NCBI GenBank assembly: GCA_964437665.1
Contig: CAYTHS010000004.1
Location: 1-58,736, forward strand
Reading direction: 5' to 3'
DNA from: an uncultured Oscillospiraceae bacterium
GTDB lineage: Bacteria > Bacillota > Clostridia > Christensenellales > CAG-138
DNA: 58,736 nt
A model generated the notes under the pieces. That model ran no database searches, had not been told where the DNA came from, and worked only from the letters and a program-made list of their open reading frames with translations. Positions 13,435 through 51,419 of the stretch are shown in pieces; position 1 is the stretch's first letter, and each line of letters begins with the position of its first letter. The translations under genes were made by a program, and so were the position numbers.

Positions 13435-15756
13435 CTACCATAGTTTTTTGCCGAGCAGCACGTTTTCGAGTCCCGCCGGATTGCAGCGCACGCGCCTTCC
13501 GGTCGCGTTGGCGACCGCATTGGCGACGGCGGCTGCCACGCACTCCATAGCGGGTTCGCCGACGCTCTTTGCGCCGTATGTGCCGCTGGGGTCGTCGCAC
13601 TCGAAGATATTAATCTTGATTTCCGGCATGTCCATAGCCGTCGGAATCAGGTATTCGTCGAGGTTTTGCGTTTTGACGAGACCGTTCTTCGTGACGACTT
13701 CCTCCATGGTGCCGTAGCCTTGCCCCATGAGCACGCCGCCGTAAATCTGCCCCTTGACCTGCGCGGGATTGATGGCCGTGCCCGCATCGTGGCTGCTGGT
13801 GACGCGCGCAACGCGCACTTCACCGGTTCCCGTGTCCACCTCGACTTCGGCGACCACACAGGCGTAGGAATATGTGGGGAACGCTTTGCCCTGCTGGGTA
13901 TCGTGGTCCTGTACGCAGGGCGGCGGCGTGAACCACTCGTAAGCGGAAAGGCACATGCCGCGCCAGAGGCCCGCACCCGCGACGTCCGCCAGGGAAATGC
14001 GGTAGCTTGGGTAGCCTGGGTCAAAAAAGAATCCGTCCCGCAAGATCAGATCGTCCGCCGATCGGTCGTGCCCGCAGCCGCCTTTTCCAGCGGTGAAATG
14101 GCCGAGGTCGACCGCGTTCTGCCTTAAAACCCGGTTGAGCTTGTCGCCCGCTTTTTTAACCGGCTGTGCGCCCATGACCGTTCCGCGCGAAGCGACGGTC
14201 ATACCGCTGTCCGGGATGCAGTGCGTGTCCGTGCCGTAAAATTGGACGCTTTCAAACGGTACGCCGAGCGCCTCCGCGGCGATTTGGCAGTAAACGGTCT
14301 TGAGCCCTTGCCCGTTTTCTGCAAGACCAGAGTGCAGCAAAACGGAGCCGTCCTCGTTGACGATGATAAACGCGCCCGCCGCGTCCGGAGATTCCGCGCC
14401 GTATCCGCAGCCGCGGTGAGATATTGCCATGCCGACGCCGCGGCGGTACCGGCCGGTCTGTTTTTGATAGCGCGCGTGCTTTGCCGCATAGTCCGTCTGT
14501 TTGGCCGTGTAGTCTATCATTTCCGGCAGAACGACATGCTCGACCGCCGAGCCGGTTGCTACGTGAGAACCGTTTCTGAGGCAGTTGACGCGGCGCATCT
14601 CCAGCGGGGTGAGGCCGGCTTCTTCGGCGAGCTCTTCGATGAACTGTTCCTGCGCATAGATCAACTCCGGGCTGGAGTAACCGCGAAACGCCCCGGAATG
14701 GATATTGTTGGTGAACACGCCGAAGGTTTCCGCTTCGACGTTCGGGATGTCGTACGCACCCGCGCAGTGCGCCGTTGCGCGCCAGTTCATGAACTGTGTC
14801 TGGTTGTTATAAGCGCCTGAATTGTCGATCTGCGAGGCTTTCCATGCGACAATGCGCCCGTCTTTTTTAAGTCCGGCTTTATAGGTGAACAGAAACGGAT
14901 GGCGTTTGCTGCTTTCGAGCAGCGATTCTTCGCGTGAAAAGACCATTTTGACCGGGCGGTGCAGCAGGCGGCAGAGGTATGCGCAGCGTGCCGCAAGCAA
15001 CCCCACACCTTCCTCTTTGCCTCCGAACGTGCCGCCGAGCGTTTCCTGAATCAGGCGCACGCGGTTGAAAGGGATTTGCAAAATATCCGCAATGTAGCGC
15101 CGCGTGAAAAATGGATTCTGCGAGGAGGAGTGAACGGTCATTTCTCCGTTAGAAGGATTTTCGACGGCGACCGCCGCCTCCGGTTCGATATAGGCGTGCT
15201 CAACATACTGAGTTTCGTAGGTGCGTTCGACAATCAGGTCGGCTTCCGCAAACCCTTGCTCCGCATCGCCCTTTTTCAGCGTGTAGCGGGATTGTGTGAA
15301 GATGTTACCCGGATATTCCTCGTGCACGAGCGGTGCGCCGGGCGCCATTGCTTCGCGCACGCCGAACACGGCGGGGAGTTCTTCGTATTCCACCCGGATA
15401 TGCTTTTTCGCCGCCTCGGCCTGTTCCTTTGTTTCGGCGGCGATTAGAGCGACCACGTCGCCGACGTAGCGGATACGGTCGGTCAGATAACGGTACGTGG
15501 CCCAACTCTTCGTTTTCGGCATTTCGGCAGCGGTGACGACTGCCAGCACGCCCGCCTGCTTACGCGCCTCAGACGCGTCGATCGAGAGAATGCGCGCACT
15601 GACCACGCCGTCGAGCCGGAGCATCGCGCCGTGCGCCATGTGTGGGTACGATACGTCCGCGGCATAGTTTGCGCGGCCCGTCACTTTGTCGGGACCGTCG
15701 ATGCGAGGCGCCGAATGATTGACGATATGGAACTGTTTTTTACCGTACAAAGGCAT
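13435..15756 (-). CDS. Xanthine dehydrogenase family molybdopterin-binding subunit (copy 1)
   Basis: KVTGRANYAAD, HAYIEPE, LGGTFGGK, AFRGYSSP, ENGQG, GAKSVGEP. Confidence 0.92.
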   Translation of the reverse strand: MPLYGKKQFHIVNHSAPRIDGPDKVTGRANYAADVSYPHMAHGAMLRLDGVVSARILSIDASEARKQAGVLAVVTAAEMPKTKSWATYRYLTDRIRYVGDVVALIAAETKEQAEAAKKHIRVEYEELPAVFGVREAMAPGAPLVHEEYPGNIFTQSRYTLKKGDAEQGFAEADLIVERTYETQYVEHAYIEPEAAVAVENPSNGEMTVHSSSQNPFFTRRYIADILQIPFNRVRLIQETLGGTFGGKEEGVGLLAARCAYLCRLLHRPVKMVFSREESLLESSKRHPFLFTYKAGLKKDGRIVAWKASQIDNSGAYNNQTQFMNWRATAHCAGAYDIPNVEAETFGVFTNNIHSGAFRGYSSPELIYAQEQFIEELAEEAGLTPLEMRRVNCLRNGSHVATGSAVEHVVLPEMIDYTAKQTDYAAKHARYQKQTGRYRRGVGMAISHRGCGYGAESPDAAGAFIIVNEDGSVLLHSGLAENGQGLKTVYCQIAAEALGVPFESVQFYGTDTHCIPDSGMTVASRGTVMGAQPVKKAGDKLNRVLRQNAVDLGHFTAGKGGCGHDRSADDLILRDGFFFDPGYPSYRISLADVAGAGLWRGMCLSAYEWFTPPPCVQDHDTQQGKAFPTYSYACVVAEVEVDTGTGEVRVARVTSSHDAGTAINPAQVKGQIYGGVLMGQGYGTMEEVVTKNGLVKTQNLDEYLIPTAMDMPEIKINIFECDDPSGTYGAKSVGEPAMECVAAAVANAVANATGRRVRCNPAGLENVLLGKKLW

Positions 15757-15814
15757 GAAATAACCACCTTTACCGAACTGGTGCTTGTGCAAAAGACCTG
15801 TATGCTATACACAG

Positions 15815-15880: not shown

Positions 15881-15894
15881 CGCACATATGTGCG
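15881..15894. promoter_or_regulatory. Palindromic candidate operator CGCACATATGTGCG
   Basis: Perfect 14-bp palindrome between divergent promoters. The same GCACA-N2-TGTGC core recurs at 35218-35229. Confidence 0.5.
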
Positions 15895-15945: not shown

Positions 15946-17325
15946 ATGGGGTATAACGATATGGCAAGAAACACGGTTTTCATCAAAGGCGCGCGCATGG
16001 CGGCGGAAAACGGCGGGGAACAGATCTGCAGCCTGTTGCTTGCGGACGGCAAGATTGCCGCCATAGGAACAGACGAAGCGCCGGAGGGTGCGGAAACGTT
16101 CGACGCGACGGGATTGGTCGCGCTGCCGGGCGCGGTGGATTCCCACGTGCATTTCTTTATGCAGGCGGCGAACGGGAAAAGGAATGCGGACGATTTTTAC
16201 GCCGGTTCGAAAGGCGCCGTCTGCGGCGGTACGACGAGCATTGTCGATTTTGCGAGTCCCGTTCCTGGCGGAAGCTGGACGGACGGCGTGAACACCCGCC
16301 GCGCGGAAGCGGACGGGAACGTGTTTTGCGACTACGGGCTGCATATGGAGGTCACGGGCGCGTTTGAACAGGATATTTCAAGACTCGGCGAACTGCTCGA
16401 CGCGGGCGTACGCGTATTGAAGATCTACACGACCTACGGCGCGGACCGTTATCCGCGTAAAAAACTGCACGCGCTGTTTGCCGAGGCAAAGCGTCTGGGG
16501 ATGCCGGTCCTGGCGCACTGCGAAGACGACGAAATCATCCAGAAAACGAAACGACGCATGTGCAGGGAAGGCCGGATTGCGGCGGCGCTGCACGGGGTCA
16601 GCCGTCCGGCGGCTGCGGAGATTGCCGCAGTGCAAGAACTGATTGCGCTTTCGGAACAGACGGGCGCGGAATTGATCGTCGCGCACGTTTCCGTGGGCGA
16701 AGCGGGACTGTTGATTGCCTCGGCGAGAAAGCGCGGCGTACCGGTCCATGCGGAAACCTGCCCGCACTACCTTCTGCTCGACGAAAACCGCTATGCGGGG
16801 AAAGAGCCGCAGCGCTGGATTATGACCCCGCCGCTGCGGTCGAAGCGCGACGGCGAAATTCTCTGGGGACTGCTCGAAAGCGGCGATATCGGTATGGTTT
16901 CCACCGACCACTGCCCGTTTGCGCTTGCGCAAAAGCTCGCTGAGCCGACGTGTTTCGGCGCGATTCCCGGTGTAGGCGGGTGTGAAAACATGGTGTCGCT
17001 GCTCTTTTCGGAAGGGTATCAAAAAGGCCGGCTCACGCTGTCACAGCTTTGCAGAAGGCTGTCGGGCGAAGCGGCGCGGCGGTACGGACTATCCCCGCAA
17101 AAGGGAGGACTTACCGCCGGTTCGGACGCGGACGTGGTGCTGATTGACCCCGGCGCGCCGCGGGTTCTGCGCGCGCAAAGCGAGCACGGCAACGCGGGAT
17201 ACTCTATTTGGGAGGGGTTTCCGGTCGGCTGTTCGGTGCGGTATGTATTTTTGCGCGGGGAGCTCGCCGCCAGGGACGGCGAACCAGCCGGTGTGGCGCG
17301 GGGTATGTTTTTGCACAAAAAATAA
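15946..17325 (+). CDS. hydA: Dihydropyrimidinase / D-hydantoinase family cyclic amidohydrolase
   Basis: PGAVDSHVHF, GGTTSIVDF, KIYTTY, AHCED, HVS, ETCPHYL, MTPPLRS, STDHCPF, PGVGG.E. Start is either 15946 or 15961. Confidence 0.88.
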   Translation: MGYNDMARNTVFIKGARMAAENGGEQICSLLLADGKIAAIGTDEAPEGAETFDATGLVALPGAVDSHVHFFMQAANGKRNADDFYAGSKGAVCGGTTSIVDFASPVPGGSWTDGVNTRRAEADGNVFCDYGLHMEVTGAFEQDISRLGELLDAGVRVLKIYTTYGADRYPRKKLHALFAEAKRLGMPVLAHCEDDEIIQKTKRRMCREGRIAAALHGVSRPAAAEIAAVQELIALSEQTGAELIVAHVSVGEAGLLIASARKRGVPVHAETCPHYLLLDENRYAGKEPQRWIMTPPLRSKRDGEILWGLLESGDIGMVSTDHCPFALAQKLAEPTCFGAIPGVGGCENMVSLLFSEGYQKGRLTLSQLCRRLSGEAARRYGLSPQKGGLTAGSDADVVLIDPGAPRVLRAQSEHGNAGYSIWEGFPVGCSVRYVFLRGELAARDGEPAGVARGMFLHKK

Positions 17326-17531: not shown

Positions 17532-18680
17532 CTATGTGCTGAAACGTTCCGGCGAATAGGACTTTGCGTCTTCGGGAATCGTCCCCGTTTTCCAGTAGGA
17601 AGCGATCATATCCCCGATGGCGGGCGAGAGCGCGACCGCGCTGTGAAACGAATTCGCGATAAAGAGGTTGCCCGGCGAAGCGAACGCGCCGAAAACCGGC
17701 CGTTTATCTGGTGTGAAGGAAACAAGACCCGCCCACATACGGATGATTTCCAAGTCGGAAAGCGACGGGAAGAGACGGAGTACGCGGCGGGCAACGGCGC
17801 GCGGCCCCTCGAACGTGTTTGATTTGTCATAGCCGTCCGGTCGTGTGGTGGCCTGCGCCATGACGATGTTGCCGGAGGATGTCTGTGAAAGGCACGCGCC
17901 AACGACCATCGGGTTTTCTTCAGGCGGCTGGTTAAAAAGCGCGCCGTCGGTAATCATGCGCCGGATATGCGGAGCCGTCGGCATGCTTACCATCGCTTCA
18001 CCGCGTTCGTAGCAAACGGGCGTGTCGCGCCCGGCCATCCGGGCCAGATCGCGTGTCCAGGCTCCGCCTGCGAGTACGAACAGATCGGCTTTCACGCCGC
18101 CATCCGGCGTTTCGAGCGCGGAAACGAGCCCGTTATCCAGATGCAGGCCGGTCACGGGCGTATGCGGGCGCAGGCTTGCGCCGAGCTGCTTTGCGCGCGC
18201 GGCCATATGGAGGTTGAGCTTGAACGGGTTGACCCGTCCTTCGCCGGGACACCAGCATGCGCCGACGACCTGTCTTTCATCGAGCGCCGGTTCGAGTTCC
18301 TTTGCGCGTTTTGCGGAGACGAGGCCGATATCGTCCAGCCCGAGCGTCTTTGCGTGGCGGCACAGCCTCTCAAGCACAGCCGCCTGCGCATGGCTCGTCA
18401 GCGGGATGAGACCGCCGGACGGGACGTATTCCACATCGCCGATTTTTGCCTGTAACGCGTCCCAGTTTTGCTGCTGCTCGAGCGCGAGCGACATGCAAAG
18501 CCTGTCCTCTCGGTAACTGAGTACGCAGAATCCGGGATTGGTGCACGAAGCGCCCGCGCAGAGATCGTCCTTTTCGAGAAGGACGACGCGTGCGCCCGCC
18601 GCCGAGAGTTTCCAAGCCGCGGCTGCGCCGATTACGCCGCCGCCGACGATTGCAACGTCGAAATGCCGGTCTTTTTGCAT
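17532..18680 (-). CDS. FAD-dependent oxidoreductase, DAO family (sarcosine oxidase beta / HcnC / proline dehydrogenase beta-like)
   Basis: IVGGGVIG Rossmann motif, GASCTN.G, EGRVNPFKL, IIRMWAGL...TPDKRPVFG, C-terminal ALSPAIG. Confidence 0.85.
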   Translation of the reverse strand: MQKDRHFDVAIVGGGVIGAAAAWKLSAAGARVVLLEKDDLCAGASCTNPGFCVLSYREDRLCMSLALEQQQNWDALQAKIGDVEYVPSGGLIPLTSHAQAAVLERLCRHAKTLGLDDIGLVSAKRAKELEPALDERQVVGACWCPGEGRVNPFKLNLHMAARAKQLGASLRPHTPVTGLHLDNGLVSALETPDGGVKADLFVLAGGAWTRDLARMAGRDTPVCYERGEAMVSMPTAPHIRRMITDGALFNQPPEENPMVVGACLSQTSSGNIVMAQATTRPDGYDKSNTFEGPRAVARRVLRLFPSLSDLEIIRMWAGLVSFTPDKRPVFGAFASPGNLFIANSFHSAVALSPAIGDMIASYWKTGTIPEDAKSYSPERFST

Positions 18681-18691: not shown

Positions 18692-19660
18692 TCAAAGCGT
18701 GTTGAAAAAGTAGCTTTTCAGCAGCATGTCCGCGTCGGTCTGTCCTGCAAAAAACGTTCTGCCGGTCTTTTGATTGGTTAATTCGATGCGCGCGACCTTG
18801 TGTACGTTCGTATCCATCTTGAAGATGTCGCGCCCTGCGGCGTCATAGAGTTCGGCGAACGTTTTGCCGTTGTGCTCCGTGCCGGAAAACACCATGTGCG
18901 GCAGGACGCGCTCGATTTCTTCGTCCCTGCAGTATACGACATATTTTGCGACTGAGCCGTAGAGCGTGGAGGAATTGACGCGGTCCATTGCGATTAACTC
19001 GTCTTCGATTACCGGCGGAATTGCCGCGCTGCCCGAGAAGGACTTCACCTTTTCGAGCGGAAAACCGTTGTAGCCGAGTCCCCAGAGCGAGACCTCTGCC
19101 ATCCGCGCGGCGATCTGCACACATCCCACGAGACTGCCGGTTTTCGCCGCGAGCAGGTACACGTTTTCCGGCTTGACGCCGCAGGCCTGCGCCACCTCGT
19201 CCGCGACGGACTCGTCCGGAAGCGCGGCGGTCTGCAGTGCGAGGGCGGTTTTTTCAAATTTATCGTGGTACGGCCACATCTTTGCGATTCCGTCGTGGTA
19301 TGCGATTGCGCGCGCGGGGCCGGAGCCGAAGCCGGGCAGCTTGTACGCGCCGGAAGGCTTGATCTTCCAGGCGGAAAACTGGGAGGAAAGCGCCGCCTCC
19401 TGCGGATGGTCCAGCCGGATCTCGACGCTCTCGAGTTCGCGGGCGCCGACGTGGATTTTGCCGAATGCAACTTCACCGAGCGCACCGAGCGTGACCAGCG
19501 TGAACAGCCGTGCGGCCTCCCAGCCACCGGGAGCGTGAACGCCCATGTCGATTATGTTCGTTCCGTTTTTCAGCGTGTGTCGTTCGCATCCAAGCTCCCA
19601 AAGGCGCGGCAGAATCCGCTCCTCAATGAGCCGGCAGGTGTTTTGACTCAGACTAAGCAT
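18692..19660 (-). CDS. mch: Methenyltetrahydromethanopterin cyclohydrolase homologue (Mch-1)
   Basis: IIDMGV.APGGWEAA, ALSSQFSAW, GSGPARAIA, P....VA..CGV.PENVYLL.A.TGSLVG.VQIAARMAE, G.A.IPPV, AM.R.N...LYG. 322 aa, matching Mch size. Confidence 0.85.
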   Translation of the reverse strand: MLSLSQNTCRLIEERILPRLWELGCERHTLKNGTNIIDMGVHAPGGWEAARLFTLVTLGALGEVAFGKIHVGARELESVEIRLDHPQEAALSSQFSAWKIKPSGAYKLPGFGSGPARAIAYHDGIAKMWPYHDKFEKTALALQTAALPDESVADEVAQACGVKPENVYLLAAKTGSLVGCVQIAARMAEVSLWGLGYNGFPLEKVKSFSGSAAIPPVIEDELIAMDRVNSSTLYGSVAKYVVYCRDEEIERVLPHMVFSGTEHNGKTFAELYDAAGRDIFKMDTNVHKVARIELTNQKTGRTFFAGQTDADMLLKSYFFNTL

Positions 19661-20966
19661 GTAATTCCTCCATTATTCGGGTCAATACCGCAAAAAACTC
19701 TGCGTGAACGGCCGATTCGTCGAAACCGGTCACAACGCCTTCATGCAGCACAGGCCTGCCTCCGACGTATACGTCCCGCACGTCGCCGGAACGCGTGCAG
19801 TAGACCAGCGTTGAAATTATGTCCCCTGTGCCGAAGCCGAGGTGAGCCTTTTGCAACGGCACGATCGAAAAGTCTGCCGGCAGGCCTTTTTCGAGTACGC
19901 CGGAATCGAGCGAGAGCATCCGTGCGCCGCCTGCGGTCGCCATGCGGAATACGTCCTTTGCCGTTACGGCGGTCGGGTCCTGACACGCCGCCTTTTGCAG
20001 CATCGCCCCGAAACGCATCTCTTCGAACAGGTCGAGCCGGTCGTTGGAAGCCGGTCCGTCGGTCGCAAGCGCGATGTTGACCCCGGCACGCATCAACGCG
20101 GGGACCGGACAAATGCCGCTGCCTAGTTTTGCGTTGCTCTTTGGGTTGTAGACGAGCGTTATGCCGCGCTCGGCCGCGAGCTCGATTTCCCGCGGGGTCA
20201 TATGCACGCCGTGCACCGCGGAAAAACGCGGCGAAAGCAGGCCGAGGCGGTCGAGATAACAAAGCTCCGGTTCGCCCTTCTCGGCGACGCACTGGCGCGC
20301 TTCCGCGGCGGTTTCGTCAACATGTGTCTGCACGCGCGAGCTGTAGTTTTTTGCGAGCGCGGCGATGGAGCGCATTGCGGATTCGCTGGTCAGGTTCGGC
20401 TCGGACGGGGTCAGCACGCACTTTTCCGGATATGTCCCGAGCAACCGTTCGATCTCCGCAAGATCGCGCTTCAACCCCATGGGCGTGCTCATGAAAAGGT
20501 CGGCCAGTTCGATGCCGGCATAGCCGTGAACGCCGGCCTGCGCCGCAGCACGGAATATGCCGTCCTGCGCGTAGTTGACGTCCATGTCGAGAAAAGCCGT
20601 CACGCCGCTTCTGAGCATTTCCGCGATGCCGCACGCCGCCCACAGGTACGAAAACCGTTCGCGTTCCGGCTTCGGGATTTTCCCGTAAAGCGCGGCGACC
20701 ATCGGGCCGAGCACCTCACCGCACCAGCCGCTCAGCGGCAGGTCGTCCCGCCGCCCGACCAGCAGCATTTGGTACAGGTGCGTATGTGCGTTGACAAAGC
20801 CCGGCAGCACGGCGCAGCCCGCGCAGTCGATTTGCTCCGCGCCGCTCGGTACGGGCAGACGTGCGCCGACGCTTCGGATCCGTCCTTCTGCAACGAGCAT
20901 GTCCACGTTTTGCAAAACGTCGTCCGCGTTTACAACTAGATATGAAATGTTCTGAAAAACACGCAT
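19653..20966 (-). CDS. Amidohydrolase, MTA/SAH deaminase (MtaD)/AtzA-like
   Basis: PGFVNAHTHL, HVDET (HxxE), AVHGVH, NPKSNAKLGSG, LATDGPASN. Start refined to ATG at 20966. Confidence 0.88.
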   Translation of the reverse strand: MRVFQNISYLVVNADDVLQNVDMLVAEGRIRSVGARLPVPSGAEQIDCAGCAVLPGFVNAHTHLYQMLLVGRRDDLPLSGWCGEVLGPMVAALYGKIPKPERERFSYLWAACGIAEMLRSGVTAFLDMDVNYAQDGIFRAAAQAGVHGYAGIELADLFMSTPMGLKRDLAEIERLLGTYPEKCVLTPSEPNLTSESAMRSIAALAKNYSSRVQTHVDETAAEARQCVAEKGEPELCYLDRLGLLSPRFSAVHGVHMTPREIELAAERGITLVYNPKSNAKLGSGICPVPALMRAGVNIALATDGPASNDRLDLFEEMRFGAMLQKAACQDPTAVTAKDVFRMATAGGARMLSLDSGVLEKGLPADFSIVPLQKAHLGFGTGDIISTLVYCTRSGDVRDVYVGGRPVLHEGVVTGFDESAVHAEFFAVLTRIMEELHA

Positions 20967-26708: not shown

Positions 26709-27917
26709 CTAGAGCGCTTTGATTTTTTCACCGAGCGCTTCCAGTTCCGCTTCGCGTTCGCGGTCGGCTTCGCTTTGCGGACAGATATCCGTGCTCAGCG
26801 CTCCGGTCGGGCAAACGTCCGCGCATGCACCGCAGGCCCGGCACAGATCGGTATCGACATGCATGTTGGGGTAGTCGAGCGAACGCGCGCCGTAACTGCA
26901 TATGGTTACGCAGCGGCGGCAGTTCGAGCAGCCGCGCGCGCCGGTGCGCGCGTTGGCGTAAGGTTCAAAGGTGAATTTAAGCCGTGAAACCACGTCTGAT
27001 TCCGGCAGGAACGGCAGTACAGCGCCGCGCGCGGATTCGATATCCGGATACCCGAGTTCAGCAAGCAGAGAGGAAAGGTCGCGGCAAAGGCGTTCGACAA
27101 CGTCGATACCGCGCAGGATGCCGATCGTGCAGATGCCGACACAGGAGCAGCCGGCCATGAAATATTCCACCGCGTCGTGCGCGCTCATGCAACCGCCGGA
27201 TCCATAGAGGTTGCTAAAATCCGTGCGGCGCTTTGCGATACCTGCGTTGACATGCAGGCTCAGCGGCCGGAGCGCTTCGCCGCTCATCCAGCCGCGCCCG
27301 TCCGCACCGGCCAGCGCTGGTCGCGCATGCTCTACGTCGATCTTCAGCACGGGACCGATGGAGTCGATTGCGCAGATGCCGTCCGCGCCGTGTTCGATGC
27401 ACCGTATCCCCGCTTCGACCGCATCCGGCCAGTTGGTGGAGAGCTTGCAGACTACGGGGATATCCACGAGGTTTTTCGCGGTCTCGAGCATCGGGAGCAT
27501 CGCTTCTTCCGAATAGGAAACCAGTTCAATCATGTCCGCGCCTGCTTTCGCCGCGTCCGGAACGATCACGCGCGCTTCCTCAGGCGTGTGCCCGACGGAT
27601 GCAATCACGACCGCGCCGGCTTTTTTAGTCAGCGGGATTTCGCGCTCGTACCATTGTTCACGCTCCAAATCCGACCATTTTTCGCAGTTGACGAGCGAAC
27701 TGTGGCCGAACGCGGCGATATGCCGCACGGGGTTGATGGCGCGGCCGATGCGGATGGTCTTGGTCACAACCGCGCCGCAGCCTGCGCGGTGTGCGCGTAT
27801 CAGCCCCTCCGCATTGTAGCCAAGCGGTCCTGAACTAAGGATGAAAGGCGTTTTCAGCGGGACGCCGCAAAGCTCGGTCGAGATATCGGCTCCGGTAAGA
27901 GTGTTCGGTTCAAACAT
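26709..27917 (-). CDS. Dihydropyrimidine dehydrogenase PreA-like FMN TIM-barrel with C-terminal 2x[4Fe-4S], atypical active site
   Basis: PFILSSGP, GAVVTKT, KLSTN, GWMSG..LRPLSL, GSGG. C-terminal CSNCRRCVTIC and CRACGACADVCP. Confidence 0.8.
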   Translation of the reverse strand: MFEPNTLTGADISTELCGVPLKTPFILSSGPLGYNAEGLIRAHRAGCGAVVTKTIRIGRAINPVRHIAAFGHSSLVNCEKWSDLEREQWYEREIPLTKKAGAVVIASVGHTPEEARVIVPDAAKAGADMIELVSYSEEAMLPMLETAKNLVDIPVVCKLSTNWPDAVEAGIRCIEHGADGICAIDSIGPVLKIDVEHARPALAGADGRGWMSGEALRPLSLHVNAGIAKRRTDFSNLYGSGGCMSAHDAVEYFMAGCSCVGICTIGILRGIDVVERLCRDLSSLLAELGYPDIESARGAVLPFLPESDVVSRLKFTFEPYANARTGARGCSNCRRCVTICSYGARSLDYPNMHVDTDLCRACGACADVCPTGALSTDICPQSEADREREAELEALGEKIKAL

Positions 27918-29330: not shown

Positions 29331-30722
29331 CTATCTGGATATACGAGGGAGAACATGGATCGCTTCCCCGGTGAAACGCTGGACGCACTCCATAAACGCC
29401 TCCGAGAGTGTCGGGTGTGCGCGCATGGTGTGTGCGGCCTCTTCAACGGTGAGCATCGCCTTCATGGACGTTGCCGCCTCGGCGATCAGGTCGCTTGCAT
29501 GCGGCCCGGCGATATGCACCCCGAGGATACCACTGCAATCGCTCTTGGAGAGGATTTTGATAAATCCGTCCGTTTCACCGAGCGAAAGCGCTTTACCGTT
29601 GCCTGCAAAATGGTAACGAGAGACAGTGTAATCGACGCCGCTTTCCCTAAGTTGCGCCTCGGTTTGGCCAATGGCGGCGATTTCAGGGAAGGCGAATACG
29701 CAGTTTGGCACGAGTGCGTAATCCACGCGCGTGTGCATGCCGCACATGCGTTCGACGCAGACGCGGCCCTCGTCGGAGGCAACGTGGGCAAGCATAACGC
29801 GCCCGGTCACGTCGCCGATGGCGTAGATCCCGTTTACGTTCGTGCGGTAGTTTTCGTCAACCGGGACGCCCTTGCGGCCGAAAGCGACGCCCGCGGCTTC
29901 AAGGTGCAGCCCGTCCGCGCAGGGTACGCGGCCCGCGCAGGAAAGTACATGCGTGCAGTCGATCGAAACGGGGCCGTTCGGTCCGTCGACCGAAACGCAC
30001 AGATTACCAGGTGCTCCCTCGATCCCGGTCACTTTGGTTCCGGTCAGGATCGAAACGCCCTGTGCGCGGAGCCGTTTCGCGGCGAATTTTGCGAGTTCGC
30101 CGTCGAGGGTGGAGAGGATGGAAGGCAGGAATTCCACAATCGTGACCTGCGCGCCGAACGCGCGGTAAACGCCCGCCAGTTCCGTGCCGATCACGCCGCC
30201 GCCGACGAGCACGAGGTTTTCCGGGATTTCGTTCAGCCGGAGCGCGGAAGCGCTGTCCAGGACATAGTCGCGTTCAAAACCGGGAATCGGCAGTGTTACG
30301 GATTTGCTTCCGGTCGCGACGATAAAAGCGTCCGCCGTGCAGGTCTCGTTCCCGACACATAGGGTATTTGCGTCCAGGAAGGAGGCTTCGCCCGGCATAA
30401 CGGTCACGCCGTTGGCCTTTAGCAGCGAACGTACGCCGGAAACCAGCGTTGCGACAACTTTTTCCTTGCGCGTACGGGCTGCCTCGAGATCGAGACGAAC
30501 CGCTTCGGTGTGTACGCCGTAACGAGAGGCGTTTTTCGCCTCCATGAGCACCTCGGCGGTGCGATAGAGCGTTTTGGTCGGGATGCAGCCGTGGTTGAGA
30601 CACGTGCCGCCGATGCGTTCGCGTTCGATCAAAGCGACTTTTTTCCCCAGTTGTGCGGCGCGGATAGCCGCGACGTAGCCGCCCGGTCCGCCGCCGATGA
30701 CGATCAGTTCAAAATGCAGCAT
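29331..30722 (-). CDS. lpdA: Dihydrolipoamide dehydrogenase (E3)
   Basis: GGGPGGYVAAIRAAQLG, GGTCLNHGCIPTK, AIGDV, LAHVA..EG, HPTLSE. Confidence 0.95.
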   Translation of the reverse strand: MLHFELIVIGGGPGGYVAAIRAAQLGKKVALIERERIGGTCLNHGCIPTKTLYRTAEVLMEAKNASRYGVHTEAVRLDLEAARTRKEKVVATLVSGVRSLLKANGVTVMPGEASFLDANTLCVGNETCTADAFIVATGSKSVTLPIPGFERDYVLDSASALRLNEIPENLVLVGGGVIGTELAGVYRAFGAQVTIVEFLPSILSTLDGELAKFAAKRLRAQGVSILTGTKVTGIEGAPGNLCVSVDGPNGPVSIDCTHVLSCAGRVPCADGLHLEAAGVAFGRKGVPVDENYRTNVNGIYAIGDVTGRVMLAHVASDEGRVCVERMCGMHTRVDYALVPNCVFAFPEIAAIGQTEAQLRESGVDYTVSRYHFAGNGKALSLGETDGFIKILSKSDCSGILGVHIAGPHASDLIAEAATSMKAMLTVEEAAHTMRAHPTLSEAFMECVQRFTGEAIHVLPRISR

Positions 30723-30731
30723 GACGGCGCG

Positions 30732-32021
30732 TCACCTCCAGTCGGTTTCGTTCAGGATATCGACGACTTCCTGCAGATAGCGGCAGGCGGGCGCGCCGTT
30801 GAGCACGCGGTGATCGTAGGTCAGGCAAAGATTCATCACAGGCTCGATAAACACCCCGCCGTTCTTGGCGATCGGCATGTCCCGCAGTTTGCATACGCCA
30901 AGGATCGTTGTTTCCGGCGGGTTCAGAATCGGCGTGAACGAGGTCGCGCCCGCCATGGCGAGGTTTGTGACCGTCGTGGCAGCGTCGCCGAAGTCGCTTT
31001 CGGACAGCCCGCCGCTTTTGGAGCGTGCGGCGAGGCCGGAAACGTCCCGGCAGAGCGCGCGCAGCGTTTTTTTGTCCGCATTGCGCACGACGGGAACGAG
31101 CAGCCCGCGTTCGGTATCGACCGCTACGCCGATGTGCACCCCTTCCGGCAGAAGGAAGCTTTTTTCATCATGATACTGCATCCGCACGTCCTCGCGGGAA
31201 GCGAGCGCGCGGGACACGGCAAATACGATCATCGCCGTGTATGAAAGCTTGATTCCTTCTGCTGCATAGATCGGTTTGAGCCGTCTGTACGCCGAAGCGA
31301 GCAACGCAAAGCCGCTCTCGATGCAGACGGTTGTCTGCGCGGCGGTTTCGAGACTCTTTTTCATCGCGGCGGCGGTCGCGCGCTGTACACTGTTCATCGG
31401 GACGACCTTCACGCTCGCGGGCTTGCCGTACGTTTTCACGTCCGCGACGGTCACCATGCCAAGCAGCCCGGTGCCGCGGATATGCTCGTAAGAAAGGTGT
31501 TGCTTTTCGGCGAGCATCCTTGCGCGCGGCGTGATGGAAACCGGGTGTGCGGGGGATTGTTCCTTCGGCATGTCTGCCGCGGCGCGCACGTCGTCGATTG
31601 TGATTTTCCCATCGCGGGCGGTGCCGGTCACTGTGCTTGGATCTAATCCACGTTGCTGCATGACGGTTTTTGCGCGCGGGGTGGCGGATACCGCATAACC
31701 GGCGGACGACGGTTCAATCGCCGGCTTCGGCGCGGGTGCGGATTGTACAGCCCCGTGCGAAGACGCGGGGGAGGCGGACTCGCCCGGTTCGCCGATTGAG
31801 CAGATGGGTTCCCCGCATGGCGCGGAGTCGCCGGGTTCCAAAAAATATCGAAGCATCGTGCCGTCCGCAGAGGCGACGGCGTCGTTGGTGAGCTTTTCCG
31901 CTTCGATCACGGCGATCGGATCGCCGCGTTTCACCTTGGCGCCGATGGGAACGAGCCATTCGGAGACGACGCCTTCTTCCATAGACAGCCCGAATTTGGG
32001 CATAATTTCAATCGTTGCCAT
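30732..32021 (-). CDS. Dihydrolipoamide acyltransferase (E2), AcoC-like with two peripheral-subunit-binding domains
   Basis: MPKFGLSMEEG, lipoyl motif EAEKLTND, ATPRAK and ITPRAR binding domains, GLLVPVVR, TYDHRVLNG. Confidence 0.9.
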   Translation of the reverse strand: MATIEIMPKFGLSMEEGVVSEWLVPIGAKVKRGDPIAVIEAEKLTNDAVASADGTMLRYFLEPGDSAPCGEPICSIGEPGESASPASSHGAVQSAPAPKPAIEPSSAGYAVSATPRAKTVMQQRGLDPSTVTGTARDGKITIDDVRAAADMPKEQSPAHPVSITPRARMLAEKQHLSYEHIRGTGLLGMVTVADVKTYGKPASVKVVPMNSVQRATAAAMKKSLETAAQTTVCIESGFALLASAYRRLKPIYAAEGIKLSYTAMIVFAVSRALASREDVRMQYHDEKSFLLPEGVHIGVAVDTERGLLVPVVRNADKKTLRALCRDVSGLAARSKSGGLSESDFGDAATTVTNLAMAGATSFTPILNPPETTILGVCKLRDMPIAKNGGVFIEPVMNLCLTYDHRVLNGAPACRYLQEVVDILNETDWR

Positions 32022-32108
32022 TTTTTGCCCTCCCTGGGCGCGTATTTGTACTCGCGATGAAAAAAACGGGCCGAGGATGCGTTTCATCGCTGCCAAACGA
32101 CCGCCTTT

Positions 32109-33086
32109 TTAGAACGCCGCAATCTCTTTTGCGGCGCGTACAACGTCCGCAGACCTGAGCATATAATAGTCTTCGAGCACAGGCGCGAATGATACCGGCA
32201 CATCCAGGCACGTCACGCGTGCAACCGGCGCGGCGAGGTATTCAAAGTATTTTTCACCGATCATGGCGGAAATCTCCGCCGCCCAGCCGCCGACCTTCGG
32301 GCCTTCCTGCGCGATCACGAGACGCCCCGTCTTTGCGACCGACGCGGCGATCAGTTGCTCGTCGTAGGGCTTGATCGTGCGCAGATTGATCACTTCCGCC
32401 GAAACGCCTTCCTTTTCGAGTTCAGCTGCGGCTTTAAGCGCCATGCCGACGGTGATTTGCAGCGCGGCGATAGTCACGTCCGTGCCCTCGCGCTCGATCA
32501 CCCCCTTGCCGAGCGGCAGGGTATAGGGTTCCTCCGGCACGTCGCCCTTTGCGTTAAGCAGCATTTTATGCTCCAAAAAGAGCACCGGATCATCGCTCCG
32601 GATGGCGGAAATCAAGAGTCCTTTGGCTTCATACGGCGTGGCGGGGGAAACGATCACGAGGCCGGGAGTGCTTAAAAACCAGCTTTCGACCGTCGCGGAA
32701 TGATGGTAGGCGCAGCGGATACCCGCGCCCTGCGGCGCGCGGATGACGACGGGGCAGTTCGCCTCGCCCTGAAACATGAAGTTGAGCTTGGCGGAGCTGT
32801 TGACAATCTGGTCGAACGCAACGCCCGCGAAGTCCGCAAACATGATCTCCGCGACGGGCCGCAGCCCCGCGATGGCTGCGCCGTTTGCAAGGCCGACGAT
32901 TGCCGACTCGGAGAGTGCAGTGTCGAAAATGCGGTCCGGCCAGCGGTGATAGATGTTCTGCGTCAGGCCGAAATCGCCTCCCATTTTGGCGACGTCCTCG
33001 CCGAGCACGAACACGGAATCGTCCCGTTCCATCTCTTGGATCAGGGCTTCGTTGATCGCCTTGGTATAGGTCAGTTTGCGGCTCAT
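32109..33086 (-). CDS. TPP-dependent 2-oxoacid/acetoin dehydrogenase E1 beta
   Basis: VLGEDV, DTALSESAIVG, PVAEIMF.DF, HHS..VE, DDPVLFLEHK. Confidence 0.92.
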   Translation of the reverse strand: MSRKLTYTKAINEALIQEMERDDSVFVLGEDVAKMGGDFGLTQNIYHRWPDRIFDTALSESAIVGLANGAAIAGLRPVAEIMFADFAGVAFDQIVNSSAKLNFMFQGEANCPVVIRAPQGAGIRCAYHHSATVESWFLSTPGLVIVSPATPYEAKGLLISAIRSDDPVLFLEHKMLLNAKGDVPEEPYTLPLGKGVIEREGTDVTIAALQITVGMALKAAAELEKEGVSAEVINLRTIKPYDEQLIAASVAKTGRLVIAQEGPKVGGWAAEISAMIGEKYFEYLAAPVARVTCLDVPVSFAPVLEDYYMLRSADVVRAAKEIAAF

Positions 33087-34066
33087 CGTTCCACCTCCAC
33101 CGTAAATCCTTCGTATACGTGCGAAACCGCTTCCGAAACGTCCGGTACGGGGCTTTCGATCGAGAAACGCAGCATTTCTTTTATCTGCGCGTCTACATCG
33201 CCCTCGATGGCCCCGAGTTCTTCTTCGGATACTTTTTCGCGTTCCTTAAGTACGTTTCTCGTGAGCAGCACGGGGTCGCGCTTTTTCCAGTAGGCGAGCT
33301 CTTCTTCCGGCCGGTAGGAGGCGGGGTCTCCTGCAAAGTGCCCCTGCCATCGGTAGGTAACGAACTCGATCAGCGACGGGCCGCCGCCGCTTCTGGCGAT
33401 CTGCACCGCCTGTTCCGTGGTTTCGACGACGGCTTCCACATCGTTTCCGTCCACACGCCACGAAGGCACGCCGTAGCCGTCCGCCCACTGGCGCAGTTCT
33501 TGCTGCGGGTGCGCGGTGCCGCAGGGCGTCGAGATCGCGTAGCCGTTGTTGATGAGGCAGTAGACCACCGGCAGTTTCCAGGTTGCGGCCATGTTCAGGC
33601 TCTCGTGGCAGGTGCCTTCACCAAGCGTTCCATCGCCCATGAATACGGCGGAAACGTCGTCCGTGTGGCGGTATTTGGCCGCGAACGCCGTTCCGAGCGC
33701 GGTGACGACGGTCGAACCCTGAATGCCGTTGAAGCCGTGATTCCGGCAGGACCAGTCGTGGATATGCATGGAACCGCCGCGGCCGCCGTTGACGCCCGTG
33801 GCCTTGCCGAAAATCTCGGCCATAACGTATTTGGGATCGGTTCCGCATAAAAGAATCGCCCCGTGGCCGCGGTGGTCGGGGTATTTGTAGTCTGTTTTTC
33901 TCAGCGCGCGCACCACGCCCGCCTGACAGGCTTCCTGCCCGGTGGAAAGGTGCACGAAACCGGGGATGGTGCCGTTCGCTGCATATTCCTTGATCACGTC
34001 TTCAAAATTGCGGATCAAAAACATATCGCGGTAAAGTCCCTTGAGACGCTCTTTTTCCAATGCCAT
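33083..34066 (-). CDS. TPP-dependent 2-oxoacid/acetoin dehydrogenase E1 alpha
   Basis: PGFVHLSTGQEA, HRGHG, GRGGSMH, GDG..GEG...ESLNMAA.WKLPV....NN, TYRW.GH..GD. Confidence 0.92.
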   Translation of the reverse strand: MALEKERLKGLYRDMFLIRNFEDVIKEYAANGTIPGFVHLSTGQEACQAGVVRALRKTDYKYPDHRGHGAILLCGTDPKYVMAEIFGKATGVNGGRGGSMHIHDWSCRNHGFNGIQGSTVVTALGTAFAAKYRHTDDVSAVFMGDGTLGEGTCHESLNMAATWKLPVVYCLINNGYAISTPCGTAHPQQELRQWADGYGVPSWRVDGNDVEAVVETTEQAVQIARSGGGPSLIEFVTYRWQGHFAGDPASYRPEEELAYWKKRDPVLLTRNVLKEREKVSEEELGAIEGDVDAQIKEMLRFSIESPVPDVSEAVSHVYEGFTVEVER

Positions 34067-34287
34067 AATCATTCCTCCGATTTCAGATGCTCGACGCTGT
34101 CTGCGGTTTCTATAGATTCCCCGCGCGGCGCAGAAATGCCGGAGCGGGCGTTGTATGCATAAGAGGTGTGGCTGCCGGATGGGCGAGAACCGCTGTTTTG
34201 CGGCGCGGCGCCGCAGATACGACCGATAAGATTTTTAATGGAGAGACGTATTTTTGAATGGCTGGCGCGAATGTATCGCGCCAGCCG

Positions 34288-34366: not shown

Positions 34367-35125
34367 TTATGCGCCGGGCTGGATATAGAGGATGCTGTAG
34401 AGCGTATATTCGCCGATGCCCGGGACCTCCGCGTCTACGCGGTCTTCGATCCAGGAGATATAGCATTCGCCGATTTCGTCGGCGGCGACGTTATGAGTGT
34501 ATTCGTCGGTGCAGATGAAGTCATAGCTGTCTGCTTCGACCATGCCGAGCGCGTCAAACACGTCCTGAACGCTGATTTTGTCCTTATAGGAGGTCATGAA
34601 CGCATCCGAACCGAAATTGATGTACGCAACTTCCCAGACAGCCCAGTCGGGGTCCTGCGCTTCGCCGACGACGACAGGGGCGTTGTCGCCTTCCAGCGTC
34701 AGGTACTTCTGGAGGATATCGCTGAGGACTTCGTCGCCGACATAACCGTCCGAGCCGATCACCTGCACGTCCTCGTTGCCCATGACGCCGCACTTGTCGT
34801 ACACTTCCTGAATCGAGTATGCCGAACGAAGATCGCCCTCGTAACGGGGCTGGTCGCTGGGGGTCAGGCCTTCGATGGCGTTATTCCACACGATGATGCG
34901 GGAAACGCCTTCCGCTGTGTCGGCAGGCTCTTCCGCCGCTTCGGCGGGTTCTTCCGCTGCTTCAGCGGGTTCTTCCGCCGCTTCAGCAGGCTCTTCCGCC
35001 GCTTCGGCGGGTTCTTCCGCTGCTTCGGCGGCGGGCTCGGTCGTCTCGGGTGCTTCCTGCGCGGTGCACGCAAACAGCGAAAATACCATCAACAGAGCAA
35101 ACAGCAAAGCAAGAGTTTTTTTCAC
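34367..35125 (-). CDS. Acidic lipoprotein with an (EAAEEPA)5 linker and two internally repeated domains
   Basis: GTG start with AAGGAGG RBS, lipobox LFAC. First gene of the ~17.6-kb minus-strand operon. Confidence 0.8.
   Translation of the reverse strand: MKKTLALLFALLMVFSLFACTAQEAPETTEPAAEAAEEPAEAAEEPAEAAEEPAEAAEEPAEAAEEPADTAEGVSRIIVWNNAIEGLTPSDQPRYEGDLRSAYSIQEVYDKCGVMGNEDVQVIGSDGYVGDEVLSDILQKYLTLEGDNAPVVVGEAQDPDWAVWEVAYINFGSDAFMTSYKDKISVQDVFDALGMVEADSYDFICTDEYTHNVAADEIGECYISWIEDRVDAEVPGIGEYTLYSILYIQPGA
34926..35030. repeat. Five tandem 21-bp coding repeats
   Basis: Unit gg(c/t)tcttccgc(c/t)gcttc(a/g)gc(g/a) x5 with no spacers. Units 1 and 4 are identical. Confidence 0.95.
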
Positions 35126-35217: not shown

Positions 35218-35229
35218 GCACATTTGTGC
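35218..35229. promoter_or_regulatory. Palindromic candidate operator GCACATTTGTGC
   Basis: Lies in the second divergent promoter region and shares its core with 15881-15894. Confidence 0.5.
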
Positions 35230-35321: not shown

Positions 35322-35651
35322 GTGCGCAGAGTGACGCGGCATCCCGTGATAGAGATTGAACCGAAGGCTGAAATAACGATTGTTGCAGACGGAAAAACGC
35401 TGTATGCGCACGAGGGCGAAACCGTCGCCGCTGCATTGAGCGCCAACGGTATACGCGTGTTCCGGCATACGGCGAAACGGCACGAGCCACGCGGGATTTT
35501 CTGCGGGATTGGCCAGTGTACGGACTGCGTGATGGAGATCGACGGCGTTCCGAACCGGCGCGCGTGCATGACGATCGTGCGAGAAGGCATGGTCGTCAAT
35601 ACGCAGCAAGGTAACGGGAAATGCGGGGTAGGATGCGATGCAGATGTATGA
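35322..35651 (+). CDS. (2Fe-2S)-binding protein, HcnA / sarcosine oxidase alpha N-terminal-like
   Basis: GETVAAAL..NG, PRGIFCGIGQCTDC.M.IDG.PN.RAC. GTG start. Confidence 0.88.
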   Translation: MRRVTRHPVIEIEPKAEITIVADGKTLYAHEGETVAAALSANGIRVFRHTAKRHEPRGIFCGIGQCTDCVMEIDGVPNRRACMTIVREGMVVNTQQGNGKCGVGCDADV

Positions 35652-36723
35652 CGTGATCGTCGTCGGCGCGGGACCGGCCGGCCTCGGCGCTGCCATCGAA
35701 GCGGGAAAACATGGTGCAAGCGTGCTGCTGCTGGATGAAAATGCGCGTCCCGGCGGACAGCTCTTCAAGCAGATCCACAAATTCTTTGGATCCAGGGAAC
35801 ACTATGCGGGCACGCGTGGGTATGCCATCGGTCAAAACCTGCTTGCCGAAGCGGACGCGCTCGGCGTGGAGTTCCGGCTTGGCATGCGCGTTTGGGGCGT
35901 ATACCCGTACGGCGGCGTGTCCGCGACGGACGGTGAAACGAGCGTGCGTTTTTTTGGAAGGAAAATCATCCTGGCAACGGGCGCGTCTGAAAACGCGTTG
36001 AGTTTTCCCGGCTGCACGCTGCCCGGCGTGATGACCGCAGGCGCGGTGCAGACTATGGTCAACGTCCAGCATGTGCTGCCTGGAGAGCGGTTTGTGATGA
36101 TCGGCTCCGGCAATGTTGGGCTGATCGTGGCGTATCAGTTGCTGCAGGCGGGTGCGGAAGTTCGCTGCATCCTCGAAGCCGCGCCCAGAATCAGCGGTTA
36201 CGGTGTGCACGCGGCGAAGGTCAGGCGCGCTGGCGTGACGGTTTATACAGGGCGTACCATCGTCCGCGCGAACGGCAAAGACGGCGTGGAAAGCATCGTT
36301 ACGGCGGAAGTAGACGCGTGTTTTTGCCCGGTTGGAGGCACGGAAAAGACGATTGAATGCGACACGGTCGCGCTGGCGGTCGGACTTTCGCCGAGGATCG
36401 AGCTAGCAGGCGTGAGCGGCTGTGAAATGGCGTATTCAGCCGCACTCGGCGGCATGCTGCCGCTGCATAGCGACGATATGGAGACGACCTGCGAAAACAT
36501 GCTGATAGCGGGCGACCTTGCCGGCATCGAGGAAGCGAGTACGGCGCTGGACGAAGGCCGCATGGCGGGCTGCCGCGCGGCGTATCTGCTCGGCTGCCTG
36601 ACAAAAGAAGAATACGAAAAGGAAAAACGCGCGCTGCTTTCCCGGCTGAACGCGCTGCGGGCGGGGCCGTTCGGGGAAAAACGGCGTACGGCCAAGGAGG
36701 CTCTATGGAACACGATGCGGTGA
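35638..36723 (+). CDS. FAD/NAD(P)-dependent oxidoreductase, HcnB / opine oxidase A / proline dehydrogenase alpha-like
   Basis: VVGAGPAGLGAA, GGQLFKQ, ILATGASE..L.FPG.TLPGVM, IAGD.AGIEEA..A..EG. Confidence 0.88.
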   Translation: MQMYDVIVVGAGPAGLGAAIEAGKHGASVLLLDENARPGGQLFKQIHKFFGSREHYAGTRGYAIGQNLLAEADALGVEFRLGMRVWGVYPYGGVSATDGETSVRFFGRKIILATGASENALSFPGCTLPGVMTAGAVQTMVNVQHVLPGERFVMIGSGNVGLIVAYQLLQAGAEVRCILEAAPRISGYGVHAAKVRRAGVTVYTGRTIVRANGKDGVESIVTAEVDACFCPVGGTEKTIECDTVALAVGLSPRIELAGVSGCEMAYSAALGGMLPLHSDDMETTCENMLIAGDLAGIEEASTALDEGRMAGCRAAYLLGCLTKEEYEKEKRALLSRLNALRAGPFGEKRRTAKEALWNTMR

Positions 36724-37028
36724 ACGCCGAGATCGTCTGCCGCTGTGAGGAAGTCACTGCGGAGGAGATCATGGAGGCGATACGAAACGGCGCGGATTCG
36801 CTGGACGCGGTGAAGAGAGCCACGCGGGCGGGGATGGGATTCTGTCAGGGGCGCACCTGTAAGCGGCTGATCGCGCGCATGCTTTCCTGCTATTATGAAA
36901 TGCCGGTCGACCGGTTTTTACCGGGGAGCCTGCGTTTGCCGGTCGCGCCGGTCAAGCTCTCGCTGCTGGCGGAAACTGAGGATGTGCAGAACGGGAAAAC
37001 GGAGGACGGCGCATGCGAAAAATCCTGA
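36705..37028 (+). CDS. BFD-like [2Fe-2S]-binding protein
   Basis: IVCRCEEVT, KRATRAGMGFCQGRTC, R.PV.PV. Confidence 0.88.
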   Translation: MEHDAVNAEIVCRCEEVTAEEIMEAIRNGADSLDAVKRATRAGMGFCQGRTCKRLIARMLSCYYEMPVDRFLPGSLRLPVAPVKLSLLAETEDVQNGKTEDGACEKS

Positions 37029-37441
37029 TCGACTGCCGGGAAAGCATCCCATGTGATCCCTGCCGCTATGCTTGCCCCGCACATGCTATCGTGATCGAGG
37101 GCGACATTACGAACCTGCCGCAGGTGTTTCCGGAGCGCTGTACGGGCTGCGGGCTTTGCGTTGCGGCGTGTCCCGGCCAGGCGTGTTTCTTGGTGGACGA
37201 GTATTACGCCGAGGGGCGTGCAAGCGTGGATTTCCCTTACGAATACCTGCCGCTGCCCGAGGTGGGTATGCGCGTAACTGCGCGGGACAACGACGGTTGC
37301 GACGTATGCGAAGCGCTCGTGGAACAGGTGATTTTGCGCAAAAGCGCACAGAATACAGCCGTCGTGCGCGTGAGCGTGCCGAAAGAATTCGCATTCCACG
37401 TGCGCGGCATGAAGCCTCTCCGCTTTCGGGAGAGGGAATAG
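37013..37441 (+). CDS. 2x[4Fe-4S] ferredoxin-domain protein
   Basis: C..SIPCDPC..ACP and CTGCGLCVAACPGQA, plus the C-terminal PYEYLPLP..G domain. Confidence 0.88.
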   Translation: MRKILIDCRESIPCDPCRYACPAHAIVIEGDITNLPQVFPERCTGCGLCVAACPGQACFLVDEYYAEGRASVDFPYEYLPLPEVGMRVTARDNDGCDVCEALVEQVILRKSAQNTAVVRVSVPKEFAFHVRGMKPLRFRERE

Positions 37442-37709: not shown

Positions 37710-37871
37710 TAGGGTGTGTTCCCAAAATCACAAAAGCGCATTACCGCCGCTTCAACTTGCATATTTTTGTTGAAAAGCCGCGCCGCAGCACCACTGCGCC
37801 TGTGTTTTTCGTCTCAACCTTCAAGCCGATCCAGCAAAACTGCATCTTTCAGGCTTTAAAACACACCTCAG
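37710..37871. mobile_element. MITE-like family 2, copy 1 (162 bp)
   Basis: Terminal inverted repeats TAGGGTGTGTT...AACACACCTCAG. Body is closely similar to 51257-51419. Confidence 0.75.
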
Positions 37872-51256: not shown

Positions 51257-51419
51257 TAGGTTGTGTTTCTAAAGTCACAAAAGCGCATTTCCGCCGCCTC
51301 GACTTGCATGTTTTCGTTAATAAGCCTCGCCGCAGCACCACTGCGTCTGTGTTTTTCGTCTCAATCTGCAAGCCGATCCAGCAAAATTGCATCTTCTAGG
51401 CTTTAGAAACACACCCTAG
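51257..51419. mobile_element. MITE-like family 2, copy 2 (163 bp)
   Basis: TAGGTTGTGTTTCTAAA...TTTAGAAACACACCCTAG. Core cgccgcagcaccactgcg.ctgtgtttttcgtctcaa and aagccgatccagcaaaa shared with copy 1. Confidence 0.78.

Follow-up and report, generated by a model that had tools for sequence, protein, structure and literature searches.

The window analysed here is the whole 58,736-nucleotide stretch of contig CAYTHS010000004.1 (assembly GCA_964437665.1, forward strand), which originates from an uncultured Oscillospiraceae bacterium. It contains a plus-strand module of four electron-transfer genes (35322-37441), encoding a [2Fe-2S] subunit, an oxidoreductase, a BFD-like subunit and a 2x[4Fe-4S] subunit, and, 16,642 bp away on the opposite strand, a gene for a DAO-fold protein (Table 1). 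Judged from sequence comparisons and gene context, the products of these five genes very probably form a single soluble amine (C-N) dehydrogenase, a multi-subunit flavin/Fe-S enzyme of the archaeal proline dehydrogenase 2 (PDH2), opine dehydrogenase (OpnDH) and D-hydroxyproline dehydrogenase (D-HypDH) kind, with the DAO-fold protein as its dedicated catalytic subunit. Below, genomes, contigs and loci carry G, C and L numbers, G000 being the window's own genome.

The four open reading frames of the module are free of stops, and each overlaps the next end to start. All Fe-S cysteines are present and invariant among relatives: four in the [2Fe-2S] subunit (16 homologues), C7, C9, C42 and C47 in the BFD-like subunit and eight in the 2x[4Fe-4S] subunit (14 homologues). 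The [2Fe-2S] subunit resembles OdhC/HcnA and the N-terminus of SoxA and of the PDH alpha subunit. In the oxidoreductase, for which the top PDB matches are the SoxA chains 2GAG_A and 1VRQ_A, an acidic residue comes after the GxGxxG motif of the second Rossmann fold, which suggests the use of NAD(H). The BFD-like subunit has a single PDB match (1Y56_A, residues 414-491), is the equivalent of the C-terminal domain of PDH1 alpha and is predicted to be the docking piece for the DAO subunit, and the 2x[4Fe-4S] subunit is one that we infer to be PdhF-like. Together, the Fer2_4, oxidoreductase and BFD proteins correspond to the N-terminal half of SoxA in the same order (soxA 11-100, 169-488 and the A3 domain). 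The features of PDH, OpnDH and D-HypDH are found in the five proteins, namely a DAO-fold beta subunit, an Arg-x-Trp motif, a dinucleotide-binding alpha core, the [2Fe-2S] motif C-x4-C-x2-C-x11/12-C and the BFD motif C-x-C...C-x4-C, in addition to the extra ferredoxin-like subunit of the PDH2 type. The inner spacing of the BFD motif is 32 residues versus 15-20 in the legend of PMC4575208, and the protein still aligns to 1Y56_A. The assignment of the module to the sarcosine oxidase/Hcn/proline dehydrogenase family, made in the initial annotation, is supported.

The best match of the DAO protein, both by sequence and by fold, is PDH1 beta (1Y56_B, TM-score 0.84). R314 and W316 are invariant across 41 aligned DAOs and form the Arg-x-Trp motif, which is the flavin mononucleotide (FMN)-binding motif of multi-subunit beta chains (PMC4575208). 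Other invariant residues are N48, Y56, R57, E228, Q266, Q276 and H346. V320 aligns with the Arg of glycine oxidase 4YSH, and no Arg is present at this position in any of the 41 rows. V53 and A350 occupy what we take to be the positions of MSOX R52 and K348, and the invariant R57 might stand in for the replaced carboxylate-binding residues. The tests for a glycine oxidase or L-proline dehydrogenase function failed, on these replaced canonical Arg/Lys positions and on the score against the glycine oxidase ThiO model (138 bits against a cut-off of 251).

How unusual the split is was evaluated in a sample of about 400 Clostridia genomes, in which 37 other oxidoreductase matches were obtained at E<=1e-70. 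The loci of 35 of these were fetched; four stop at a contig edge, leaving 31 that could be scored. A DAO gene directly follows the small Fe-S genes in 29/31 and is located 3-4 kb off on the same strand in 2/31, and contiguity is therefore the rule in Clostridia, as the initial annotation had stated for HcnABC, opine oxidase and dye-linked proline dehydrogenase operons. The DAOs of these contiguous loci are only 23-31% identical to the window DAO, which is a member of a separate clade (17 rows, support 100). Within this clade, gene order varies freely. The order Mch-DAO-Fer2-FADox-BFD-Fer4 is found, on a single strand, in L160, L161 and L166; their module genes are arranged as in the window, and their DAO and oxidoreductase proteins are 49-50% and 60% identical to those of the window, respectively. 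In L158, a DAO orthologue directly precedes Fer2, after which the locus is cut. DAO and module are also co-oriented in L078, L079 and L164, with one or two genes inserted: the BFD gene adjoins the DAO gene in L078, where an amidohydrolase gene is inserted inside the module, and E1alpha/beta lie between module and DAO in the Atribacteria-type loci L079 and L164. In L082, the module is convergent with the DAO at a distance of 8.7 kb. The divergent split of the window is retained in G019, G006, G055 and G453 (~17 kb), G050 (12 kb) and G052 (9.4 kb). A contiguous DAO gene at orthologous loci, which the initial annotation had counted against the pairing, was thus found, but it is the orthologue of the window's own DAO gene, which confirms the pairing. 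A sister DAO clade (32-34% identity) is present in L160, L161, L183 and L185 and is also linked to Mch, amidohydrolase and ECF transporter genes.

Of 40 genus genomes, nine have the module, and the same nine have the DAO orthologue and Mch; these genomes are related and not independent. A mirror-tree test (rho 0.59, permutation p 0.0005, 46 pairs) is inflated by relatedness and carries little weight, and the oxidoreductase tree, in which the backbone is unresolved and the FngB outgroup branch is too long to place, was not used for the direction of events. A structural model of DAO with the BFD-like subunit scored 0.76, versus 0.00 for the best of three controls, and so passes a mark that is reached by 58/80 solved complexes and 2/110 mismatched pairs. 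The runs share at least 49% of contacts, the partner has a pLDDT of 69 or more and DAO residues 307-316 are part of the interface. This pass may stem from the likeness to 1Y56, in which case it shows likeness and not binding. Because orthologues adjoin the same module elsewhere, and because of the co-occurrence, the Arg-x-Trp motif and the DAO-BFD model, the DAO gene most likely encodes the catalytic subunit that belongs to the module.

This gene had been described as the only DAO subunit. It is indeed the sole stand-alone one, but G000 has two further full-length DAO domains, on contigs C82 and C53. Both are DAO-BFD fusions (FngA/GlpA type), each with an oxidoreductase gene of its own behind it (truncated at the contig end in C82), and they were rejected as partners of the module for these reasons. 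The C53 set (11882-15060; L027) is of the FngABC type: its DAO and BFD parts are fused, its B subunit bears QCIH and its C subunit is small and rich in Cys. The FngABC-type copy on C82 (11200-12971) is preceded by a sugar ATP-binding cassette (ABC) operon. That the module serves several DAO subunits by exchange, or is an orphan of which the partner was lost or not assembled, is very improbable, given that G000 has one stand-alone DAO, that no DAO remnant adjoins the module and that module and DAO are found in the same genus genomes. This is set against the precedent of OdhB1/OdhB2 in B. japonicum, the single module flanked by two DAOs in L160 and L161, and the 92% completeness of the G000 assembly. 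G454 also speaks for exchange or an orphan module, as it has a BFD-DAO pair without the remainder of the module (L076) and a complete module without a DAO within 19 kb (L186, on C17), with genes for aconitase X and proline racemase coming after the latter. Sharing of DAO subunits is plausible in L160, L161 and G454.

In the window, the split is inherited and reflects ordinary gene shuffling inside one apparently co-regulated cluster. The DAO gene closes the minus-strand run as its 15th gene, with 14 genes preceding it, which confirms its described place at the end of the divergent run; the next gene beyond (15946-17325) is on the plus strand. Since the palindrome GCACA-N2-TGTGC in the divergent control region is conserved, joint regulation of the divergent units, i.e., the module and the minus-strand run, is suggested. 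This palindrome has four exact matches in the genome, two of which are within the cluster; the other two (C24:14049 and C45:12259) are near gene starts and have no evident link to the cluster. A gap of 294 bp after the first gene of the minus run may hold an internal promoter. Promoter and terminator scans gave results near shuffle level, and an Rfam search gave no match. The first gene of the minus operon (34367-35125) encodes an unannotated 252-aa protein that resembles a lipoprotein and has a linker of Ala/Glu/Pro repeats; this protein is conserved in the genus and is also encoded close to the G453 cluster.

No DAO remnant was detected in the gap after the module (best hidden Markov model score -0.7 bits), and a broken or lost DAO beside the module was rejected. 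A dispersed repeat forms part of the extra DNA at this place. With four intact reading frames and no adjoining remnant, the module stands as first described, i.e., a plus-strand Fe-S/FAD (flavin adenine dinucleotide) unit without a DAO subunit. The repeat is ~160 bp, resembles a miniature inverted-repeat transposable element with short terminal inverted repeats, is located at 37710-37867 and 51257-51415 and has 90 near-full-length copies across 58 contigs.

The module had also been proposed as a shared electron hub for the DAO, the PreA-like enzyme and the FAD-less Mo enzyme (3276-5555; the other Mo enzyme, 13435-15792, has a FAD subunit). Docking of the module on the latter two, by which it would supply or remove their electrons, is highly unlikely. 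The window does have a PreA without PreT and a Mo enzyme without a FAD subunit, the module is encoded apart and is apparently co-regulated with the whole cluster, and the closest PreA homologue of G453 carries a fused Pyr_redox_2/Fe-S unit, indicating that NAD(P)H coupling can be useful. However, both proposed clients occur without the module: of the genus genomes, 15 have PreA-like proteins and 14 have a close homologue of the FAD-less Mo enzyme, in each case with six lacking a module match, and in the single-contig genome G049 the PreA and Mo genes are neighbours, with module and Mch both absent. G052 has retained the module, the DAO, both Mch and E1/E2/E3 despite the loss of the cluster's PreA, of the importer, of one of the Mo enzymes and of the SsnA-like hydrolase, and in G453 (C37) module and DAO are present with no PreA in the cluster. 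In addition, UacX and XdhD of C. difficile, which have the same FAD-less architectures, are proposed ferredoxin users (PMC12507026), which counts against a physical hub. The hub proposal was therefore not upheld; docking on these two enzymes is unnecessary and not supported, and an indirect link through the ferredoxin pool is possible. In the G453 PreA homologue (848 aa; C22, L190:4769-7315), for which G454 and G455 have frames of similar length, an inserted PreT-like unit (Fer4_20/Pyr_redox_2) separates the DHO_dh domain from the ferredoxin at the C-terminus.

Table 1. Genes and sites of the window that are discussed in the text.
Feature	Position	Strand	Remarks
[2Fe-2S] subunit (Fer2_4)	35322-35651	+	Pfam PF13510 7e-32; ligands C61, C66, C69, C82
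FAD/NAD(H) oxidoreductase, alpha-subunit core	35638-36723	+	Pyr_redox_2; 361 aa; without folate-binding (GcvT) domain
BFD-like Fe-S subunit (Fer2_BFD/SO_alpha_A3)	36720-37028	+	PF04324, PF17806; alternative ATG 36705
2x[4Fe-4S] ferredoxin-like subunit (Fer4 dicluster)	37013-37441	+	Fer4_7; conserved C-terminal domain
DAO-fold catalytic (beta) subunit	17532-18680	-	PF01266 2e-61; N-terminal ADP-binding motif
Mch homologue 1	18692-19660	-	TIGR03120 238 vs cut-off 229; most constant neighbour of the DAO
Deaminase-type amidohydrolase	19653-20966	-	Conserved companion of the DAO clade
E1alpha, E1beta, E2, E3 of a 2-oxoacid/acetoin-type dehydrogenase	29331-34072	-	Frequent companion of the DAO
FwdA/FhcA-like (cut by contig start), FwdC/FhcC-like and MptN/RimK-like genes	21-2945	+	
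PreA/UacX-like flavoprotein	26709-27917	-	Proposed hub client; dependence on module unsupported
FAD-less Mo hydroxylase and its 2x[2Fe-2S] subunit	3276-6105	-	Proposed hub client; dependence on module unsupported
Palindrome GCACA-N2-TGTGC, candidate operator	35218-35229		Divergent control region; kept in 8/8 orthologous intergenic regions
Second palindrome copy	15882-15893		The cluster's other divergent region; kept in 5/5 orthologous regions

The neighbouring genes suggest that the cluster may serve the anaerobic breakdown of an N-heterocycle, by a so far undescribed route with one-carbon enzymes of the methanogen type. Homologues of XdhD, UacX, SsnA, HyuA and YgeY are present, and the neighbours further include hydrolases of the purine type and an ABC importer of the nucleoside type. 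Mch adjoins the DAO in 17 of the 19 loci with context and is present in the cluster in all 19, and E1 or E2 is found in 12 of them, adjacent to the DAO in L079, L164 and L082 and one gene off in L076. An ftr gene and an fhcB-like gene are located on C82 (132-1909) and adjoin the cluster in closed relatives; C82 probably adjoins the window contig (C4) as it does there, with no exact end overlap. Together with the FhcA-, FhcC- and MptN/RimK-like genes of the window, these two genes make up a branch for formyl transfer. Ftr was found in all five genomes searched. In the chemistry that is favoured, tentatively, as the likeliest, a ring- or carrier-bound N-CH2-N or a cyclic amine would be oxidised to an amidinium, which Mch would open to the N-formyl compound for deformylation by Ftr/Fhc. 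Next to this, and a little less probable, a ring-opened amino acid would be deaminated to a 2-oxo acid for E1/E2/E3, replacing YgeX, which was not found in the five genomes (controls positive).

An N-demethylase similar to sarcosine oxidase or N-methylglutamate dehydrogenase, with the methylene group being passed to a pterin carrier for Mtd-Mch-Ftr-Fhc, is unlikely. The homology to SoxA and SoxB, the Mch, Ftr, Fhc and MptN-like ligase genes of the cluster and the Mtd genes beside the DAO in L082 and L167 would fit such a function. On the other hand, the alpha subunit has no GcvT domain, the soxA and soxB scores are far under cut-off, the remaining neighbours are the purine-type hydrolases and the nucleoside-type importer, and Mtd was not found in G000 by tblastn with the real Mtd protein of L082 (a Pfam search lacked a positive control). 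In L082 (4614-5522) and in L167, the methylene-tetrahydromethanopterin dehydrogenase (Mpt_N) gene is convergent with the DAO orthologue.

The substrate would be oxidised at the FAD of the DAO subunit. From there, family knowledge of OpnDH indicates that electrons would pass to an FMN at the DAO-BFD interface, to the BFD cluster and to the FAD of the oxidoreductase, with NAD+ as the likely acceptor, and the [2Fe-2S] and 2x[4Fe-4S] subunits would connect the complex to ferredoxin. OpnDH itself holds two FAD, an interface FMN and a [2Fe-2S] cluster (PMC4575208).

It is possible, although not the expected case, that the five-subunit enzyme bifurcates between ferredoxin and NAD and shares a ferredoxin pool with the UacX-/XdhD-like enzymes without being bound to them, an indirect form of hub that is compatible with one dedicated C-N dehydrogenase. 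Amine/imine couples are more positive than NAD+/NADH, the module offers an extra [2Fe-2S] and two [4Fe-4S] clusters, and the sequence of its oxidoreductase matches that of the genome's FngB-type protein at 37% identity. FngABC, in which a DAO+BFD subunit is combined with a Pyr_redox subunit and a low-potential cluster, is an electron-bifurcating glycerol-3-phosphate oxidoreductase in which reduced ferredoxin drives the reduction of NAD+ by a high-potential substrate (PMC13689815). Against bifurcation, the position of the FngB motif QCIH reads KQIH or KQTH in 47/47 module homologues (KQIH in the window), the DUF1667 subunit is absent and no paper was found showing bifurcation for PDH2-type enzymes. 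A more far-reaching proposal, in which an FngABC-type bifurcating core extends to the PDH2-like family and the enzyme oxidises ring- or carrier-bound N-CH2-N to an amidinium for Mch/Ftr/Fhc, is improbable; if true, it would mean an anaerobic N-heterocycle pathway that operates in the absence of methanopterin and methanofuran synthesis, with the enzyme and the UacX-/XdhD-like enzymes exchanging electrons by way of ferredoxin.

Several observations weigh against the assignment of the five genes to a C-N dehydrogenase and against its proposed role. The DAO is only ~25% identical to characterised beta subunits, and the QCIH position of FngB is altered as described above. The substrate of the five-gene enzyme has been inferred from neighbour genes, and among these no E1 was seen in the fetched DNA of L078, L160 and L161, and mptG and mfnB were not found in the five genomes (controls positive). 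In addition, the presence of Mtd next to the DAO in L082 and L167 means that the DAO there is not simply a substitute for Mtd.

The split itself is ordinary, and the value of the result is that it fixes which five genes to co-express for the enzyme. Of more interest is the beta clade, the function of which is uncharacterised and which is tied to Mch/Ftr/Fhc and often to E1/E2/E3. Mch, Ftr and Fhc have been noted in Firmicutes and Atribacterota without the cofactor-synthesis genes (PMC5020050), and no paper was found in the literature assigning a function to them in these Firmicutes and Atribacterota. The enzyme therefore offers a testable way into this role, as well as a test of whether the widespread clostridial PDH2-like complexes bifurcate like their distant relative FngABC. 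Literature searches, as an incomplete check, found no description of the cluster.

Among the known systems, FngABC shares the DAO + BFD + Pyr_redox_2 core. In contrast to FngABC, DAO and BFD are unfused in the window, KQIH replaces QCIH, a Fer2_4 subunit and a Fer4 dicluster take the place of DUF1667 and the DAO is of the amine-oxidase type; membership of the FngABC family was ruled out on the lack of the DAO-BFD fusion, of QCIH and of the DUF1667 C subunit. The likeness to SoxBDAG (2GAG, 1VRQ) consists of the Fer2-FADox-BFD order, which mirrors the N-terminal half of SoxA, and of the beta fold, whereas the window system has no folate-binding domain and no SoxD or SoxG genes in the cluster, and keeps its Fe-S clusters. 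A heterotetrameric sarcosine oxidase was ruled out, as GcvT is missing from alpha and the soxA and soxB scores are 152 versus 1164 and 85 versus 529 bits, respectively. The genome's single GCV_T domain is on C68, and a Pfam search for SoxD gave none in the five genomes and no match in any control genome either.

OdhABC, D-hydroxyproline dehydrogenase and HcnABC likewise have a separate [2Fe-2S] subunit (C-x4-C-x2-C-x12-C), two ADP-binding folds and the FMN motif, and their beta subunits are exchangeable (PMC4575208). Unlike in these systems, the window's BFD is encoded by its own gene, an extra 2x[4Fe-4S] subunit is present and the host is anaerobic. With regard to HcnABC, the comparison covered the ThiO-type Arg, which is absent from the window DAO. 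The clostridial five-gene operon Fer2-FADox-Fer4-BFD-DAO, found in 30 of the ~400 sampled genomes, contains the same module at 41-56% identity, but these operons are contiguous, have DAOs of other clades and show no Mch in the fetched DNA.

The system also resembles the dye-linked L-proline dehydrogenases PDH2 of Thermococcus profundus and PDH1 of Pyrococcus horikoshii (1Y56). As cited in PMC4364671, PDH2 is an alpha-beta-gamma-delta enzyme encoded by pdhA, pdhF, pdhX and pdhB, and the T. profundus set is likened here by this description. The DAO-fold beta subunit with Arg-x-Trp, the BFD domain, the dinucleotide-binding alpha core, the N-terminal 2Fe-2S-type domain and the extra ferredoxin subunit are shared. 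The window differs from both in that alpha is split into separate genes and beta is encoded 16.6 kb away on the other strand, in that its DAO has ~25% identity and different active-site residues and in its context, which is that of Mch/Ftr/Fhc and not of proline.

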